NCBI GenBank assembly: GCA_034430255.1
Contig: DAOUEU010000046.1
Coordinates: 1-43,059, forward strand
Direction: 5' to 3'
Length of the DNA stretch: 43,059 nt
From: Dehalococcoidia bacterium
Lineage (GTDB): Bacteria > Chloroflexota > Dehalococcoidia > E44-bin15
In this document: piece after piece, positions 31,005 through 37,061 of the stretch
Layout: every line of letters starts with the position of its first letter
How positions within the stretch are numbered: position 1 is the first letter of the stretch
The notes under the pieces: model-generated
Databases searched by the model: none
What the model was told of the DNA's origin: nothing
Seen by the model: only the letters and a program-made list of their open reading frames with translations
Made by a program: the position numbers and the translations under genes

Positions 31005-31280
31005 CTATTTGTGTATTTTTTCTTTAAAATAGTCTTGTATACTTTTCCCTAGGTTTTCAGCCTCTTTTCCCACCTCTCTAAACTTGGCTTTGGTTTCATC
31101 ATCTTTGACATTGCTTGCTAAAATCTTAGCTGACTCAACAATACTTTCCCCGAAAGCCTTGGCCTTTTCCTTCAGCTCAGGGTCGTTAAATATTTGGCTT
31201 ATGGCATCTCCAAATGATTTAATCATTTCACCAAACTGTTCTGCAGGTTTTTTCTTATCAATATTTCCTTCTTGTGACAT
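31005..31280 (-). CDS. Small (91 aa) K/E-rich predicted helical protein, function unknown
   Basis: MSQEGNIDKKKPAEQFGEMIKSFGDAISQIFNDPELKEKAKAFGESIVESAK.... GAGAGGGG lies 5 nt upstream of the ATG at 31280. No family was recognised. Confidence 0.55.
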   Translation of the reverse strand: MSQEGNIDKKKPAEQFGEMIKSFGDAISQIFNDPELKEKAKAFGESIVESAKILASNVKDDETKAKFREVGKEAENLGKSIQDYFKEKIHK

Positions 31281-31453
31281 AGTGCCCCTCTCTATTGTTA
31301 ATCTTTTATACATTACTTCTAGGCTGACTTGCCTGATTATAAAATGCACAGAGCCATATTTTCAGTAAACTATCGGTTACAGTGTGAACGGGTACACTAT
31401 TTCTACATTGAGGTAGTGGAAAGGTAGATATTGTCAGCCGCTTTTACAACTTT

Positions 31454-32611
31454 CTAGACGAAGGCTCTAATCCCCAGAGCTCTCCTTCCCACGATAAGTT
31501 TCTGCATCTGCGTGGTGCCGTCGGGTATGGTTAGAGTCCTGGCATCCCTGAAGTATCGCTCTACCGGATACTCTTCGGAAAGCCCCATAGCCCCGTGTAT
31601 CTGGATGGCCTTTGAGGTCGTCCTCACCGCTGCTTCGGTGGCGTAGGCCTTTGCCAGTGATGCCTGCCAGCGGCATTTCTCCCCCTTATCCAGCAGGTCT
31701 AGGGCGCGGAACGATAGAAGTCGCCCGGCTTCGGTCTCGGCTATCATATCCACGACCATCTCCTGTATCATCTGGAAACTACCCAGTTGGCGGCCAAACT
31801 GGGTTCTGTCCTGGGCGTATTTAATTGAAGCGTCTATAGCAGCCTGAGCGATACCTGTGCAGGTTGCTCCCACCATCGCCCGTGACACATCGAAAAAGGC
31901 CATTGTCCGCTCGTAGCCTGAGCCCGGGTCTAACTGGTTTACTCTGGGAACCCGACAGTCATTGAACGAAAGCTCCGAGGTAGGAAAGGAACGTAGCCCC
32001 AGCTTGTGTAGCTCTCTTGCGTCGAAAGGAGAGACATCCCTCTCAACAAGCATAAAGGACATCCCCAAAGGGCCCAGCGACTTATCTGTTGTGACGAGGA
32101 TAAAAGCGGCATCGGCTATACTGCCATTTGAAATCCACGTCTTTGTCCCGTTGATGACATAGTCGTCCCCATCCAGAACTGCAGTGGTCTCCACGCCGGC
32201 GACGTCGGAGCCGACATTAGGCTCTGTTATCGCTAAACAACCTATGTAGTCACCAGAAGCAGCGAGAGGTAGCAGTCTCTCCTTCTGCTCCGGGTTGCCC
32301 GCTTCGTTTAAGAGCCACCAGAAGGCTGCGGCAATGAAAAGTGTTCCGGCAAGGCTGCCCCAGGCCCTGGCAAGCTCTTCGACTAAGATGCCGTTTGTCT
32401 TGTGGTCCAATACCGAACCGCCGTACTGTTCGGGCAGAAAGCCTACCAGATAGCCGAAGGGCATCAACTGTTGAATAAGGGAGACGGCGGTTTCCTTATC
32501 AAGCGCGCCTTTCTTTTCCTGCTCATCAACAACAGGCACAATCTCCTTATCAAGGAATTTGCGTACGTTGGTCTTCAGCATCTGTTGCTCTTCAGTTAGA
32601 TCGAAGTCCAT
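31454..32611 (-). CDS. Acyl-CoA dehydrogenase
   Basis: LAITEPNVGSDVAG...GTKTWISNG...YATEAAVRTTSKAIQIHGAMGLSEEYPVERYFRDAR is the ACAD fold, including the catalytic Glu region. Confidence 0.92.
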   Translation of the reverse strand: MDFDLTEEQQMLKTNVRKFLDKEIVPVVDEQEKKGALDKETAVSLIQQLMPFGYLVGFLPEQYGGSVLDHKTNGILVEELARAWGSLAGTLFIAAAFWWLLNEAGNPEQKERLLPLAASGDYIGCLAITEPNVGSDVAGVETTAVLDGDDYVINGTKTWISNGSIADAAFILVTTDKSLGPLGMSFMLVERDVSPFDARELHKLGLRSFPTSELSFNDCRVPRVNQLDPGSGYERTMAFFDVSRAMVGATCTGIAQAAIDASIKYAQDRTQFGRQLGSFQMIQEMVVDMIAETEAGRLLSFRALDLLDKGEKCRWQASLAKAYATEAAVRTTSKAIQIHGAMGLSEEYPVERYFRDARTLTIPDGTTQMQKLIVGRRALGIRAFV

Positions 32612-32672
32612 ATCATCATCCTTCTGATAAATGGAGCGAACCGAAGACCGAAGGTGATTTCTTTACCTGCAA

Positions 32673-33869
32673 CTAAAGCCCCACCAAGAAAACGCTGACA
32701 ACATTTACCGGGGGAATTCCCCCCATGTTATGGGTAAGGCCAAATTTTGGATCCTTTATCTGCCGTGGCCCGGCCTTCCCCTGAAGCTGCTTGTACATCT
32801 CATACATCATCCGCAGCCCCGAAGCGCCAATGGGATGACCGAAGCACTTGAGGCCTCCGTCAGGCTGTGAGGGGATTTTACCATCGATGTCGTAGAAACC
32901 CGCCTCGATATCTTCCTTGGCTCGCCCACGTGGCGAGATTCCCAAGTCTTCGTACTCGGTAAGCTCTGTGATGGAGAAACAGTCGTGGACCTCCATCATG
33001 CTTAGCTCCTCCCGGGGGCTCTTGATCCCCGCCTCAGCGTAAGCCTTCTTTGAGGCTCTGACAGTAGTCTCCACATGAGCATAGTCCCAGTCGGTGAACA
33101 TCAGCTCCTCTCCGGAACTCACAGAGATCTGTAGTGCCTTAACATAGACCGGATCAGGCCTGAATTTCTTGGCCAGCTCGGCCCGGGTCACTATGGCCGC
33201 CGCAGCGCCATCACTCACCCCGCAGCAGTCAAATAGACCCAGAGGCCAGGCTACGATAGGAGCGTTCATTACCTGTTCGATGGTGATCTCGCGGCGAAGG
33301 TGCGCCTTGGGGTTCATAGCCCCGTTGTGATGGCTCTTCACCGATATATGGGCCAGGGCACGTTTGCCTTCATCGGGGCTGAGGCCATACTGCGAGAAAT
33401 ACCTGGTACCCATCATGGCAAACGCCCCGGGAGGAGTAAAATTGGGAAAGGCAGCCCTCAGCGATGTCCCCATCTGGGTATCGTTTTGAGGAAGACCACC
33501 ATAGCCAGTGTCCTTAAGCTTCTCCACACCGAGTGCCAAACATATATCATAGGCCCCGGCGGCAACGGCATAGCAGGCTCCTCTCAAGGCCTCCGAGCCA
33601 GTGGCGCAGAAGTTCTCGACTCTCGTTGCCGGAATGAACGGCAGCTTTAACGTAGCAGCTATGGGGATGGCGGACTTCCCCACAGAGACCTCCTCATAGC
33701 ATGTTCCAGACCAGGCAGCATCGATGTCTTTCTTCTCTATACCGGCGTCCTCGATAGCTTCGATAAAGGCCTCGATCATTAAGTCCTGAGGGCCCTTGTC
33801 CCACCGTTCTCCAAACTGGGTGCATCCCATCCCGATAATAGCGATCCTGTCCTTTATCCCTTCAGCCAT
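32673..33869 (-). CDS. Thiolase, SCP-x / archaeal-type (acetyl-CoA C-acyltransferase-like)
   Basis: RVENFCATGSEAL has the nucleophile Cys88. HDCFSITEL, GGLKCFGHPIGASGL and NMGG are C-terminal thiolase motifs. Confidence 0.9.
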   Translation of the reverse strand: MAEGIKDRIAIIGMGCTQFGERWDKGPQDLMIEAFIEAIEDAGIEKKDIDAAWSGTCYEEVSVGKSAIPIAATLKLPFIPATRVENFCATGSEALRGACYAVAAGAYDICLALGVEKLKDTGYGGLPQNDTQMGTSLRAAFPNFTPPGAFAMMGTRYFSQYGLSPDEGKRALAHISVKSHHNGAMNPKAHLRREITIEQVMNAPIVAWPLGLFDCCGVSDGAAAAIVTRAELAKKFRPDPVYVKALQISVSSGEELMFTDWDYAHVETTVRASKKAYAEAGIKSPREELSMMEVHDCFSITELTEYEDLGISPRGRAKEDIEAGFYDIDGKIPSQPDGGLKCFGHPIGASGLRMMYEMYKQLQGKAGPRQIKDPKFGLTHNMGGIPPVNVVSVFLVGL

Positions 33870-33893
33870 AATTACTCCCTTCTGAATTTGTTT

Positions 33894-35339
33894 CTAAACT
33901 CGAATTGGCGTTGCTTTCCAGTAGTAGGCATGGATACCACGTGTCACGTCGTGATACTTCCTGCGGAAGCTCATCTCCACCGGCATACCTACCTCAAGCG
34001 AATCAAGCTCGCAGTCTATGAGATCACATAACCACCTTCCCCCTCCCTCGAAGTCTACCATGCCGTAGATTGCCGGTGGGCTGGGACTGAAGGCTAAGAT
34101 ATCTCCGGTATAGGTGAACAGGTGCCCCTTCTTATCGGAGAAGCGATAGCTTTCCATCTCATGGACAGCTCCACATTTAGGATTGGCACATATCTCCTGC
34201 GGGGGGTATTGTGGGGTTCCACAGCGCTTGCACTTCGATCCGCAGAGGCCCAGGACCATCCTTCTTTCCCTCCACAGCGTTGACAGCTGGGTGGGGGCAA
34301 CCTCTTCTCCACGACCCCCAGTGTCTATATTCAGTATCTCACGGAAGGTGACGTATTTCTCGTAGCTACCCAGATCTTTCTTTGAAGCCAGGTGTCCCTT
34401 GACCCCCCTTCTATCCCTGGCCTTCTCTATTTCTCCGGTAACCTCCAGGAATAGAGCGTCGCTACCGTTACCATAACTGGCAACGAGAATCTTGTCTCCG
34501 GGCTTGGCCACCTCCAGTGCCGCTACCAGTATCTGGAGGGTGTAGGCAGTGCCGGTATTACCTATAGCTGTAAACATGTGGTCCTGTATTTGATCAGGTT
34601 CAAACCCCAGTTTTTTGCCTATGTCTGCATGGGCTCTTATATAGAGGCATGGGTAAACCACCTTGGCAAAGTCCTTGGGCGTAAGCTTGTATTTATTAAG
34701 AAGCCCGGAGATAGACTCTGAGATGAATTTGTCATAGCCTTCATCCCTGACCCATCTGTCCTCCCAGGTACGGTTATACCTGTCGGTATCTGCCCTCCAG
34801 TTGTCCACGAAATCATAGGAGAGGGAGTAGGTGCCCTCGACGCTGGCGATCACCCCACTATCTCCAAAAAGGAGGGCTGCTGCGCCATCACCGTAGATCT
34901 CCTCCTGAAAGCCACCCGGTTTCCCCAGACGGCAATCTGAGGCACATACCATGACGTTCTTCGCTGAACCCGATGATACCGCATCGTAGGCAGAGATGAG
35001 AGCACCTGTTCCAGACTTGATGGATGTGGTGAAGTCAGACGTTCGAATCGCGGGGCTGAGGTCGAGGGCAGTGGCTATTATGCCCGCATTCTGCCTTTCC
35101 CTGTAGGGTGTGGTGGTGGTGGCAAAGAAAAGCCCGTCGATCTTCTCCCGCTCAAGCCCGTTCATACAGTCCATGGCGGAGGCTACCGCCATCGTGACGC
35201 TGTCCTCGTCATAGTTGGCCACTGCTTTCTCGCCGGGAAGGAGGGATGCTGGGTTTAGCCACCCTAGGGCCCCATAGATAGTCATGCGGTTGATGCGGTA
35301 CAAAGGGATATAAGCACCGTACGAAGTAATTCCTACCAT
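33894..35339 (-). CDS. HMG-CoA-synthase-like domain (apparently lacking the Glu/Cys/His triad) fused to a DUF35 zinc-ribbon/OB-fold domain
   Basis: Residues 1-~345 align by eye to archaeal-type HMGCS: GITSYGAYIPLYRI, YDEDSVTMAV, GDGAAALLF, GNTGTA. Residues ~360-481 contain CGSKCKRCG...CANPKCG followed by an OB-fold (GMVDFEGGGRW...VGMPVEMSFR), which is DUF35. Confidence 0.8.
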   Translation of the reverse strand: MVGITSYGAYIPLYRINRMTIYGALGWLNPASLLPGEKAVANYDEDSVTMAVASAMDCMNGLEREKIDGLFFATTTTPYRERQNAGIIATALDLSPAIRTSDFTTSIKSGTGALISAYDAVSSGSAKNVMVCASDCRLGKPGGFQEEIYGDGAAALLFGDSGVIASVEGTYSLSYDFVDNWRADTDRYNRTWEDRWVRDEGYDKFISESISGLLNKYKLTPKDFAKVVYPCLYIRAHADIGKKLGFEPDQIQDHMFTAIGNTGTAYTLQILVAALEVAKPGDKILVASYGNGSDALFLEVTGEIEKARDRRGVKGHLASKKDLGSYEKYVTFREILNIDTGGRGEEVAPTQLSTLWRERRMVLGLCGSKCKRCGTPQYPPQEICANPKCGAVHEMESYRFSDKKGHLFTYTGDILAFSPSPPAIYGMVDFEGGGRWLCDLIDCELDSLEVGMPVEMSFRRKYHDVTRGIHAYYWKATPIRV

Positions 35340-35468
35340 AGTACTCCATCCTTTCTACTTTTCAGGTGAACTATAGTGTACCATGTCTATACTCAAGGTT
35401 CAATTGCTATGGATTATACTCCGATGATATCACCCCTTCCTGGATAAAGGACAGACCGAATAATCTGT

Positions 35469-37061
35469 CTAGTACTTAACGGACTTTCCATACTTCTCCC
35501 TGAGGACTGTCTTCAGCACCTTACCCGCTGGGTTACGGGGAAGGGCATCCATGAAATCCACCGACTTAGGCTTCTTGTAGCTGGCCAGATTCTGCTTGCA
35601 GTACTCCACGACCTCCTCCCCGGTCATGCTCTCTCCTTGCTTACAGACCACAATGGCCTTAACCGATTCGCCCCACTCCTCGTCGTGAACCCCGATTACG
35701 GCACACTCCAGGATCTTGGGGTGACTGAAGAGGACTTCTTCGATCTCTGCGGGGTAGATATTCTCTCCCCCGCTGATAATCATGTCCTTCTTCCGGTCTA
35801 CGATATAGATAAACCCTTCTTCATCCTGCCTCACCAGATCGGTGGAGTGAAACCATCCTCCCCTCATGGCTTCCGCGGTGACCTCAGGGTCCTTGTAGTA
35901 CTCCTTCATTACAGTAGGTCCCCGGTAAATCGCCTCCCCGATTTCTCCCACTGACACATCGTTGTCTTTTTCGTCTACCACCCGTATCTCGATAAAGGGA
36001 AGGGCTCGGCCCACCGATGTCTCTCGCCCCTCATATTCGCTGGGCATAAGACCTGAAACCACCGGGCTCATCTCGGTCTGCCCGAACATGTCGAAGATCT
36101 TGACATTAGAGAAGTGCTTAATGATTTGCTTCCGAGTCTCTGTGGGCAGAATCGCCGCTCCTGTCACCCAAAGTTGGAGTGAACTGGTATCGTATTTCTC
36201 CAGATCAGGAAGCTGTAGCAGGAAGAACGCCATTGCTGGTATCAGGAGAATGGCATTGATTTTTTCCTTCTCGATGGTCTGCATGATATATTCAGGGTTG
36301 AAAACCTCCACTGGTAATACCATGGTGGCACCCAGGAAAAAACTGATCTGGCAGAAGGCGAAAGCCGCTAGGTGGAATATAGGAGGAACAGCAAAAGCTG
36401 TAGCGTTGGTAATATCAGGCATTCCCGGTTCAGAGGCCACAAACATGCTTTCTAGCATGCACATCACCACTTCATTCTTGTGGGTTAATACAGCGCCCTT
36501 GGGACTACCGGTGGTTCCAGCGGTGTACATGATGAATGCAGGGTCCTCTTCTTCCACCATAATGAGCGGTTCATCGTCGGTATACTTCGCAATCCAGGTT
36601 TCGTAGTGCAGCATGCCCTCCACTGGCTTATCAGTGATGGAAACATAGTTCCTCACCTTGGGCAGGTCCTTTTGTATGCCACTTATCATTTCCGTAAAAG
36701 CCTCCCCCATGATGAAGGCCTCGGCCTCAGAGTGATTTACAATGTACTTTAGCTCTTCTCCATGGAGTCGGAAGTTGAGGGGCACTGCCACCCCACCGAT
36801 CTTCGCTAGTGCAAAGTAGGCCTCCATAAACTGGTTGCAGTTGAAGGCCAGTATAGCTACCTTGGACCCCTTATTTATTCCCAAATCCAGCAAGGCGTGG
36901 GCCAGCCGGTTTACGCGTGCATTGAACTGCCTGTATGTCAGGCGCACTTTTCCATATATCAGCGCCTCTTTGTCGGGGAACTTACGCGCGTCACGAGCAA
37001 CCATTTCCCCTAAAAGAAGCCTTCTTCCCAGTGCTTCCTCTATTACATGTTTGTCCTTCAT
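35469..37061 (-). CDS. AMP-dependent acyl-CoA synthetase/ligase
   Basis: IMYTAGTTGSPKGAVLTH is the AMP-binding P-loop. GQTE, YRGPTVMKEYY, GWFHSTDL, DRKKDMIISGGENIYPAEIE and the C-terminal PRNPAGKVLK are further ligase motifs. Confidence 0.93.
   Translation of the reverse strand: MKDKHVIEEALGRRLLLGEMVARDARKFPDKEALIYGKVRLTYRQFNARVNRLAHALLDLGINKGSKVAILAFNCNQFMEAYFALAKIGGVAVPLNFRLHGEELKYIVNHSEAEAFIMGEAFTEMISGIQKDLPKVRNYVSITDKPVEGMLHYETWIAKYTDDEPLIMVEEEDPAFIMYTAGTTGSPKGAVLTHKNEVVMCMLESMFVASEPGMPDITNATAFAVPPIFHLAAFAFCQISFFLGATMVLPVEVFNPEYIMQTIEKEKINAILLIPAMAFFLLQLPDLEKYDTSSLQLWVTGAAILPTETRKQIIKHFSNVKIFDMFGQTEMSPVVSGLMPSEYEGRETSVGRALPFIEIRVVDEKDNDVSVGEIGEAIYRGPTVMKEYYKDPEVTAEAMRGGWFHSTDLVRQDEEGFIYIVDRKKDMIISGGENIYPAEIEEVLFSHPKILECAVIGVHDEEWGESVKAIVVCKQGESMTGEEVVEYCKQNLASYKKPKSVDFMDALPRNPAGKVLKTVLREKYGKSVKY

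Follow-up and report, generated by a model that had tools for sequence, protein, structure and literature searches.

A degenerate HMG-CoA-synthase-like/DUF35 fusion protein as the predicted non-catalytic partner of a degradative thiolase in Dehalococcoidia

Results

The window analysed here is a stretch of 43,059 nucleotides (contig DAOUEU010000046.1, positions 1 to 43,059, of GenBank assembly GCA_034430255.1) from a Dehalococcoidia bacterium of the phylum Chloroflexota. An open reading frame (ORF) on its minus strand (33894-35339) encodes a 481-residue protein in which a domain resembling hydroxymethylglutaryl-CoA synthase (HMGCS) is fused to a DUF35 domain. Very probably this protein serves as the non-catalytic subunit in a degradative thiolase complex encoded by two genes. 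Its gene belongs to a block of four co-directional genes (minus strand, 31454-37061) for an acyl-CoA ligase, the fusion, a thiolase and an acyl-CoA dehydrogenase (ACAD), separated in transcription order by 129, 24 and 61 nucleotides. The features of the block are:

35469..37061, minus: AMP-forming acyl-CoA ligase, 530 residues, first gene of the block (Pfam AMP-binding, 287.5 bits, and AMP-binding_C)
34326..35339, minus: HMGCS-fold (PhlA-like) domain of the fusion, residues 1-338 (phmmer, MAFFT, Foldseek, codon check)
35115-35117, minus: Thr75 codon of the fusion (codon check)
35019-35021, minus: Ile107 codon of the fusion (codon check)
34650-34652, minus: Pro230 codon of the fusion (codon check)
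34557-34559, minus: Asn261 codon of the fusion (codon check)
34254..34325, minus: linker joining the HMGCS-fold and DUF35 domains, residues 339-362 (AlphaFold2 confidence, conservation)
33894..34253, minus: DUF35 domain (rubredoxin-like zinc ribbon and OB fold), residues 363-481, with stop codon (Pfam, phmmer)
32673..33869, minus: SCP2/archaeal-type thiolase, 398 residues, predicted catalytic partner (NCBIfam PRK06157, match to the Protein Data Bank, PDB)
33606-33608, minus: Cys88 codon of the thiolase (motif check)
32976-32987, minus: thiolase HDCF motif, residues 295-298 (motif check)
32832-32840, minus: thiolase GHP motif, residues 344-346 (motif check)
31454..32611, minus: ACAD, 385 residues, last enzyme gene of the block (Pfam Acyl-CoA_dh_N, _M and _1)

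An earlier reading of this DNA from its letters alone (the sequence-only reading) had described the ORF as an HMGCS-like domain joined to DUF35, and Pfam, NCBIfam and structure prediction with Foldseek all agree. Pfam places ACP_syn_III_C at residues 214-292, zf-ChsH2 at 367-391 and OB_ChsH2_C at 402-459, and the Pfam search of the fusion gave no match to the HMGCS family PF01154. The NCBIfam model of archaeal-type HMGCS, PRK04262 (NF003274), aligns end-to-end with residues 1-337 and scores 237.9 bits against a cut-off of 244; TIGR00748, also an HMGCS model, scores 175.1 against 353.35. The phmmer matches to HMGCS and PhlA in the PDB span residues 2-334 and are led by PhlA (9skh_A, 145 bits; 5m3k_A, 134 bits), with archaeal HMGCS (6esq_I, 118 bits) and MucA (9vbo_A, 74 bits) behind. 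Residues 355-479 match the DUF35 subunit 6esq_E (60 bits), and also ChsH2(DUF35) (6ok1_B) and PhlB (5m3k_B).

The AlphaFold2 model of the fusion, built with 55 homologues, has a mean predicted local distance difference test (pLDDT) score of 91.3 and a predicted template modelling score of 0.93. Its sole low-confidence segment (pLDDT <50, residues 341-343) lies in the linker, which is the least conserved segment of the protein (median identity 0.50). Foldseek ranks the HMGCS of 6ESQ and 6ET9 at the top (TM-score 0.92-0.93 on the target, root mean square deviation 1.7-1.8 Å), followed by PhlA (0.87-0.88) and MucA (0.86-0.88) and then by ordinary bacterial HMGCS and FabH.

The HMGCS-like domain has lost three of the four catalytic residues of the enzyme that it resembles. 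In the phmmer alignment to archaeal HMGCS 6esq_I, Glu82 is replaced by Thr75, Cys114 by Ile107 and His238 by Pro230, and Asn270 corresponds to Asn261, so that the asparagine of the tetrad is kept in the window copy. A MAFFT alignment with PhlA and the paralogs from the same genome gives the same four columns, and the codons were confirmed. The sequence-only reading had identified Thr75 and Ile107 correctly. Its replacement for the histidine, Tyr229, is one residue off, and aligns with Phe237 of 6esq_I. In the model, Thr75 follows strand 69-74, Ile107 sits just before helix 109-123, Pro230 follows strand 226-228 and Asn261 lies between two helices; as modelled, these are the places where the thiolase fold puts its catalytic residues.

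The loss runs through the whole family. We assessed conservation in 83 close homologues (paralogs from the same genome plus 76 proteins from 80 genome loci) and in 131 diverse ones, which are full-length representatives of 50%-identity clusters, 34-54% identical to the query, from a library search that returned 682 clusters at E<=1e-30. Glutamate is found in neither set: the close homologues have Thr (72), Val (5), Ala (3) or one of three singletons at this position, and Thr is present in 114 (87%) of the diverse representatives. The cysteine is likewise missing from both sets, and leucine, threonine, isoleucine, valine and other residues stand in this column among the close homologues. At the histidine position the close homologues have Pro (62), Ala (8) or other residues and never His, and a single diverse representative has His. 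The asparagine column is variable (Asn 43, Asp 33, His 13 and others, among the 131). The four zinc-ligand cysteines of the DUF35 part (Cys370, Cys373, Cys384 and Cys389) stand in every one of the 83 close homologues and in 124-128 of the 131 diverse ones. The dead domain is itself strongly conserved (median identity 57%).

Cys132, Cys136 and Cys231 had been named beforehand as residues that might substitute for the lost ones. They occur in 62, 57 and 60 of the 83 closest homologues, respectively, and in only 10, 42 and 9 of the diverse representatives, where Val, Ala, Thr, Ser, Gly, Met and others replace them; most paralogs in the same genome lack them as well. This pattern fits packing residues rather than a nucleophile. 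The Cys231 codon is at 34647-34649, and Cys132 and Cys136 (in VCASDC) are encoded at 34932-34946; in the model, Cys136 and Cys231 would lie in loops adjoining the vestigial active-site positions. Glu146 and Arg195, which are conserved in the fusion family, are also present in real HMGCS, as judged from the 6esq_I alignment.

Directly downstream of the fusion, after 24 nucleotides and a ribosome-binding site (GAAGGGAG), lies a thiolase that has kept its catalytic machinery. It passes the NCBIfam equivalog model PRK06157 (642.7, cut-off 403), and its best PDB match is the acetoacetyl-CoA thiolase 6esq_A (217 bits), with BbsB (157) and PhlC (74-80) lower. The nucleophile Cys88 (ENFC), already singled out in the sequence-only reading, is accompanied by the HDCF and GHP motifs. 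These Cys/HDxF/GHx motifs are the criterion that divides active ACAT-type partners from PhlC and MucB (PMC12960953). The thiolases of all six other complete pairs in this genome likewise keep the NxC, HD[C/A]F and GHP motifs.

Those pairs are part of a large set of paralogs. The assembly (1.9 Mb, 172 contigs, 97.5% complete) contains nine fusion genes, the window copy included, and the eight others are 43-66% identical to it. Seven of the nine, on complete contigs, are followed directly by a thiolase, and contig ends truncate the other two. Besides the window pair, the copies are:

Contig C108, 5871-8509: complete fusion-then-thiolase pair
Contig C59, 2664-5454: complete pair, in tandem with the next
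Contig C59, 6501-9127: complete pair
Contig C86, 16887-19533: complete pair
Contig C13, 10361-13099: complete pair
Contig C159, 6540-9320: complete pair
Contig C108, 2-1243: fusion cut by the contig end
Contig C96, 7193-8434: fusion cut by the contig end

A thiolase fragment at the start of contig C68 probably belongs to a further pair. The paralog pairs adjoin family-III CoA-transferases, a pair resembling ADP-forming acyl-CoA synthetase, ACADs, short-chain dehydrogenases/reductases (SDRs), crotonases, AtuA and an electron-transfer flavoprotein. Both the CoA-activating enzyme (family-III CoA-transferase, ADP-forming synthetase or AMP ligase) and the dehydrogenases beside a complete pair differ from pair to pair. 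Across the seven complete pairs, the identities of the fusions vary in step with those of the thiolases (Mantel r 0.67, permutation p 0.003). Although seven pairs are a small sample, the co-variation fits duplication of fusion and thiolase as units.

The genome offers the HMGCS-like domain no mevalonate pathway to serve. In this 97.5%-complete assembly there is no match to PF00368 (HMG-CoA reductase) and none to PF01154, and IspG of the methylerythritol phosphate (MEP) pathway is encoded. A mevalonate role can therefore be set aside both for the fusions, as the sequence-only reading had anticipated, and for an unfused triplet elsewhere in the genome. This triplet (contig C141, 2117-4759) has the archaeal-style order DUF35, thiolase and HMGCS-like protein and stands beside a family-III CoA-transferase. 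Its HMGCS-like protein is also dead, with Ala, Leu and Gln at the Glu, Cys and His positions and VVFQQP as in PhlA; its thiolase is intact (Cys, HDCF and GHP kept).

At each of two further loci (C50, 14043-16950; C119, 1522-3850), two SCP2-type thiolase-like proteins are encoded in tandem; they have Gly for the nucleophile Cys and neither HDxF nor GHP. Next to them is a MaoC or crotonase gene, and a gene for a DUF35 protein is close by. These thiolase-like proteins score below all NCBIfam cut-offs, the best model being PRK08313, 'thiolase domain-containing protein'. From their sequences, the pairs may be Ltp2/Sal-like aldolases or non-catalytic thiolase-fold heteromers.

The fusion is widespread, and so is its pairing with a thiolase. 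Of 31 related Dehalococcoidia genomes, 23 have it, and a single genome gives up to ten matches (matches, not copy numbers). Scanning one genome per species turned up at least 579 stretches that encode it, and the taxonomy and loci given here are those of the best 80. These come from Dehalococcoidia, whose metagenome-assembled genomes (MAGs) hold the closest homologous loci; from Thermodesulfobacteriota (Syntrophales, Desulfobacterales, Desulfosarcina alkanivorans); from Bacillota (Syntrophomonas, Desulfovirgula); and from Ca. Methanoliparum thermophilum (67% identity) and one Micrarchaeota MAG. Where the sequence continues for more than 1 kb beyond the fusion, as it does in 67 loci, a thiolase comes next in 63, in Chloroflexota, Thermodesulfobacteriota, Bacillota and archaea alike. 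The neighbouring genes usually encode SDRs, ACADs and ligases, and one locus, 78% identical, repeats the ligase-fusion-thiolase-ACAD order of the window.

Proteobacterial and actinobacterial plasmids encode more distant full-length homologues (35-41% identity); these plasmids are catabolic megaplasmids from Sphingobium, Rhodococcus, Variovorax and Azoarcus. One Sphingomonas plasmid has the order SDR-MaoC-fusion-thiolase, which is a complete beta-oxidation-like set. In two family representatives, P0124 (911 residues) and P0155 (800 residues), an SDR domain is C-terminal to DUF35. This arrangement is a Rosetta-stone link between the dead HMGCS/DUF35 partner and what is probably a 3-hydroxyacyl-CoA dehydrogenase step.

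In a quick tree of the HMGCS-like domains, with the root set arbitrarily on 6esq_I and with the C141 and Sphingomonas rows on long branches, the fusions form one clade (Shimodaira-Hasegawa-like approximate likelihood ratio test, SH-aLRT, 99), the unfused C141 protein comes next and PhlA falls outside. The pair of the alkane-degrading archaeon Ca. Methanoliparum thermophilum (RXIF01000006.1, 5001-7651), whose fusion and thiolase are 67% and 71% identical to those of the window, nests within a clade of Dehalococcoidia (SH-aLRT 99). This placement suggests transfer between bacteria and archaea.

The flanking enzymes of the window block are less specific. The ligase passes the NCBIfam model PRK06187, long-chain-fatty-acid--CoA ligase (529.8, cut-off 476), which is the sole model that it passes and describes a broad subfamily. 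The ACAD substrate is not assignable because the protein scores below every NCBIfam equivalog cut-off. The operon has no hydratase gene and no 3-hydroxyacyl-CoA dehydrogenase gene; about 13 hydratases of the crotonase type, two MaoC proteins and one 3-hydroxyacyl-CoA dehydrogenase are encoded in other parts of the genome. We considered whether a novel activity of the fusion could stand in for the absent enzymes. This idea is unsupported: such enzymes are encoded elsewhere, and the conserved Glu146 and Arg195 are common to real HMGCS. A scan of the four-gene block for promoters and terminators gave counts near the shuffle expectation. Directly downstream of the ACAD gene and on the same strand is a 114-residue Lys/Glu-rich ORF (31005-31349, minus), which has no Pfam match and has a promoter-like site at 31365-31336.

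Discussion

The protein encoded at 33894-35339 closely resembles an HMG-CoA synthase in fold and has lost that enzyme's catalytic residues. What carries our interpretation is the domain architecture, the residue replacements, the fold, the intact thiolase, the conserved pairing and the absent mevalonate pathway. The sequence-only reading had proposed a non-catalytic, thiolase-fold partner for the adjacent thiolase, and the family-wide triad loss, the intact thiolase, the pairing in 63 of 67 loci and the lack of a mevalonate pathway all support that proposal at the sequence level.

We envisage the following mechanism. The HMGCS-fold domain, deprived of the Glu/Cys/His machinery for Claisen condensation, is tethered covalently to the DUF35 domain. 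By analogy with thiolase/HMGCS/DUF35, PhlACB and MucABC, the DUF35 part would clamp a dead HMGCS-like dimer onto the thiolase dimer, and the chamber for CoA and substrate would be completed at the interface. Catalysis would take place only in the thiolase, through Cys88, His295 and Cys297 of HDCF, and His345 of GHP. The thiolase would cleave a 3-oxoacyl-CoA from a beta-oxidation-like route, which the acyl-CoA ligase and the ACAD would feed, with the hydratase and dehydrogenase steps encoded elsewhere.

This class of enzyme has already been published, and the window protein is an ordinary further member of it. Liao et al. (Nat Commun 2026;17:2196, PMC12960953) searched out 1,030 bacterial loci where genes for HMGS, ACAT and DUF35 lie together, of which 1,001 have no secondary-metabolism neighbours. 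They purified the ACAT/HMGS-DUF35 complex of Pseudomonas fluorescens (Pf), in which HMGS and DUF35 are fused and ACAT keeps Cys, HDxF and GHx (PMC12960953). In vitro, the Pf complex makes neither HMG-CoA nor, from acetyl-CoA, acetoacetyl-CoA; it thiolyses acetoacetyl-CoA, and mutation of the HDxF histidine nearly abolishes thiolysis (PMC12960953).

The window pair is like the Pf pair in the fusion of the HMGS-like domain to DUF35, in the loss of Glu, Cys and His, in an adjacent thiolase with Cys, HDxF and GHx, and in the lack of any context of polyketide synthase (PKS) or non-ribosomal peptide synthetase (NRPS) genes. When class features are compared by description, its sequence appears to share all of them save one: it retains the tetrad asparagine (Asn261), at a position that is variable within the family. 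The setting is also different. The host is an anaerobic member of the Dehalococcoidia, with nine paralogs embedded in acyl-CoA catabolic clusters, and the gene order is fusion-then-thiolase, whereas the Pf cluster is written ACAT-HMGS-DUF35 (PMC12960953). Our literature search found nothing specific on a dead-HMGCS/DUF35 fusion in Dehalococcoidia or syntrophs.

Other relatives share some of these modules. All three are homologous to those of the archaeal thiolase/HMGCS/DUF35 complex of Methanothermococcus thermolithotrophicus (6ESQ/6ET9), and 6ESQ is the best structural match of the HMGCS-like domain and the best sequence match of both the thiolase and the DUF35 domain. However, the archaeal HMGCS is an active, unfused enzyme that supplies the mevalonate pathway, with Glu82, Cys114, His238 and Asn270 where the window protein has Thr, Ile, Pro and Asn. 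PhlACB (5M3K/5MG5, 9SKH) and MucABC (9VBO/9VBT) likewise combine a dead HMGCS-like part, a DUF35 part and a thiolase-fold catalytic part, but as three separate polypeptides. In PhlA, Gly115 stands at the Cys position and Cys83 at the Glu position, and only PhlC is catalytic (PMC6392133). PhlC and MucB, which have no HDxF motif, belong to secondary metabolism, where the acceptors of their acyl groups are phenolic or tetramate compounds, whereas the window thiolase has HDCF and is encoded among acyl-CoA enzymes (ligase, ACAD).

The sequence-only reading had looked instead to BbsAB and Ltp2-ChsH2(DUF35) as analogues. BbsAB (7PXP), Ltp2-ChsH2(DUF35) and Sal-Shy do pair an SCP2-type thiolase-fold enzyme with a DUF35 module in beta-oxidation-like catabolism. 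Nevertheless, all of them lack an HMGCS-like subunit, and the closest analogues are the Pf complex, PhlACB and MucABC. BbsA is a free-standing DUF35 protein, unlike the fused DUF35 of the window, and the NCBIfam scores are far below the cut-offs (BbsA, 16.5 against 250; BbsB, 157.6 against 750). Ltp2 and Sal are retro-aldolases that lack the nucleophile cysteine and have their DUF35 fused to a MaoC hydratase; the window thiolase keeps Cys88.

Some points weigh against a purely scaffolding subunit in a catabolic thiolase complex. The formation and stoichiometry of the complex and the direction of its reaction are predicted only by analogy with the homologous structures and the Pf assay, and the substrate, too, is only predicted. 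The pathway assignment depends on hydratase and dehydrogenase genes outside the operon. Moreover, the strong conservation of the fusion, with Thr75 in 87% of diverse representatives, shows a function under selection, for which 'scaffold' may be an incomplete label.

One alternative extends the preferred explanation and does not contradict it: the dead HMGCS-like domain would form part of the acyl/CoA pocket and set the specificity of the thiolase. The nine pairs would then be nine substrate-specific complexes and the standard degradative format of these anaerobes. We regard this as a serious possibility, though short of probable. It is favoured by the nine fusion paralogs in a 1.9-Mb genome and by the repeated matches in related genomes, which are not copy numbers; by the different CoA-activating enzyme and dehydrogenase beside each pair; by the apparent duplication of pairs as units; and by the strong purifying selection on the dead domain. 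Furthermore, all three subunits line the chamber in the 6ESQ, PhlACB and MucABC structures.

Could the thiolase of the preferred complex run in the opposite direction? Thiolases are reversible, and a link with fatty acid synthesis has been made for archaeal KT/DUF35 pairs (bioRxiv 10.1101/2024.07.05.601840), so that a Claisen condensation for chain elongation of the reverse beta-oxidation type is conceivable. We consider it unlikely. There is no active HMGCS to pull the unfavourable condensation, the Pf complex showed no such condensation of acetyl-CoA (PMC12960953), and acyl-CoA ligase and ACAD neighbours are typical of degradation.

A CoA-independent C-acyltransferase of secondary metabolism (a Friedel-Crafts acylase of the PhlACB/MucABC type) is very unlikely. 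PhlA, likewise catalytically dead, is the best PDB sequence match of the fusion, ahead of archaeal HMGCS. However, the HDCF motif, lost from PhlC and MucB, is present in the thiolase, which scores 217 bits against archaeal thiolase and about 74-80 against PhlC, there are no PKS or NRPS genes nearby, and the fusions form a well-supported clade apart from PhlA. We rejected this candidate on the HDCF motif and the gene context.

It is extremely unlikely that the protein is a genuine HMG-CoA synthase with relocated catalytic residues such as Cys136 or Cys231: the three candidate cysteines are frequent among the closest homologues (57-62 of 83) and the NCBIfam HMGCS score is only 6 bits short, but we rejected this alternative on the poor conservation of these cysteines across the 131 representatives and the lack of HMG-CoA reductase, and MEP-pathway ispG, the inability of the Pf homologue to make HMG-CoA and the inactivity of an archaeal tetrad mutant (PMC12960953) also speak against it.

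In practice, the non-catalytic subunit that we favour matters mainly for annotation. Such proteins are named 'hydroxymethylglutaryl-CoA synthase' in sources, and the score for the NCBIfam HMGCS model is just 6 bits short of the cut-off. The name would suggest, wrongly, that organisms without a mevalonate pathway possess one.

The finding also bears on how these loci are viewed. Minimal bacterial loci of this kind have been seen as evolutionary intermediates without a pathway (PMC12960953). The paralog count, the catabolic context and the conservation across phyla and domains argue instead for a working catabolic thiolase. The window thus qualifies the published view of 'intermediates without a pathway', and leaves the known enzymology unchanged. 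Nine fusion genes in 1.9 Mb, in a steady context of CoA ligases, CoA-transferases and ACADs, suggest that in subsurface Dehalococcoidia this complex is a main enzyme for C-C cleavage in beta-oxidation-like catabolism. Holding the complex together may not be all that the dead domain does. We tentatively propose that the fusion could be the standard specificity-determining subunit of degradative thiolases in anaerobic degraders of organic acids and hydrocarbons (Dehalococcoidia, Syntrophales, Desulfobacterales and Ca. Methanoliparum). On this proposal the fusion would be no evolutionary leftover: duplication with its thiolase would have given a genome as many as nine or ten substrate-specific complexes, and bacteria and archaea would have exchanged it.

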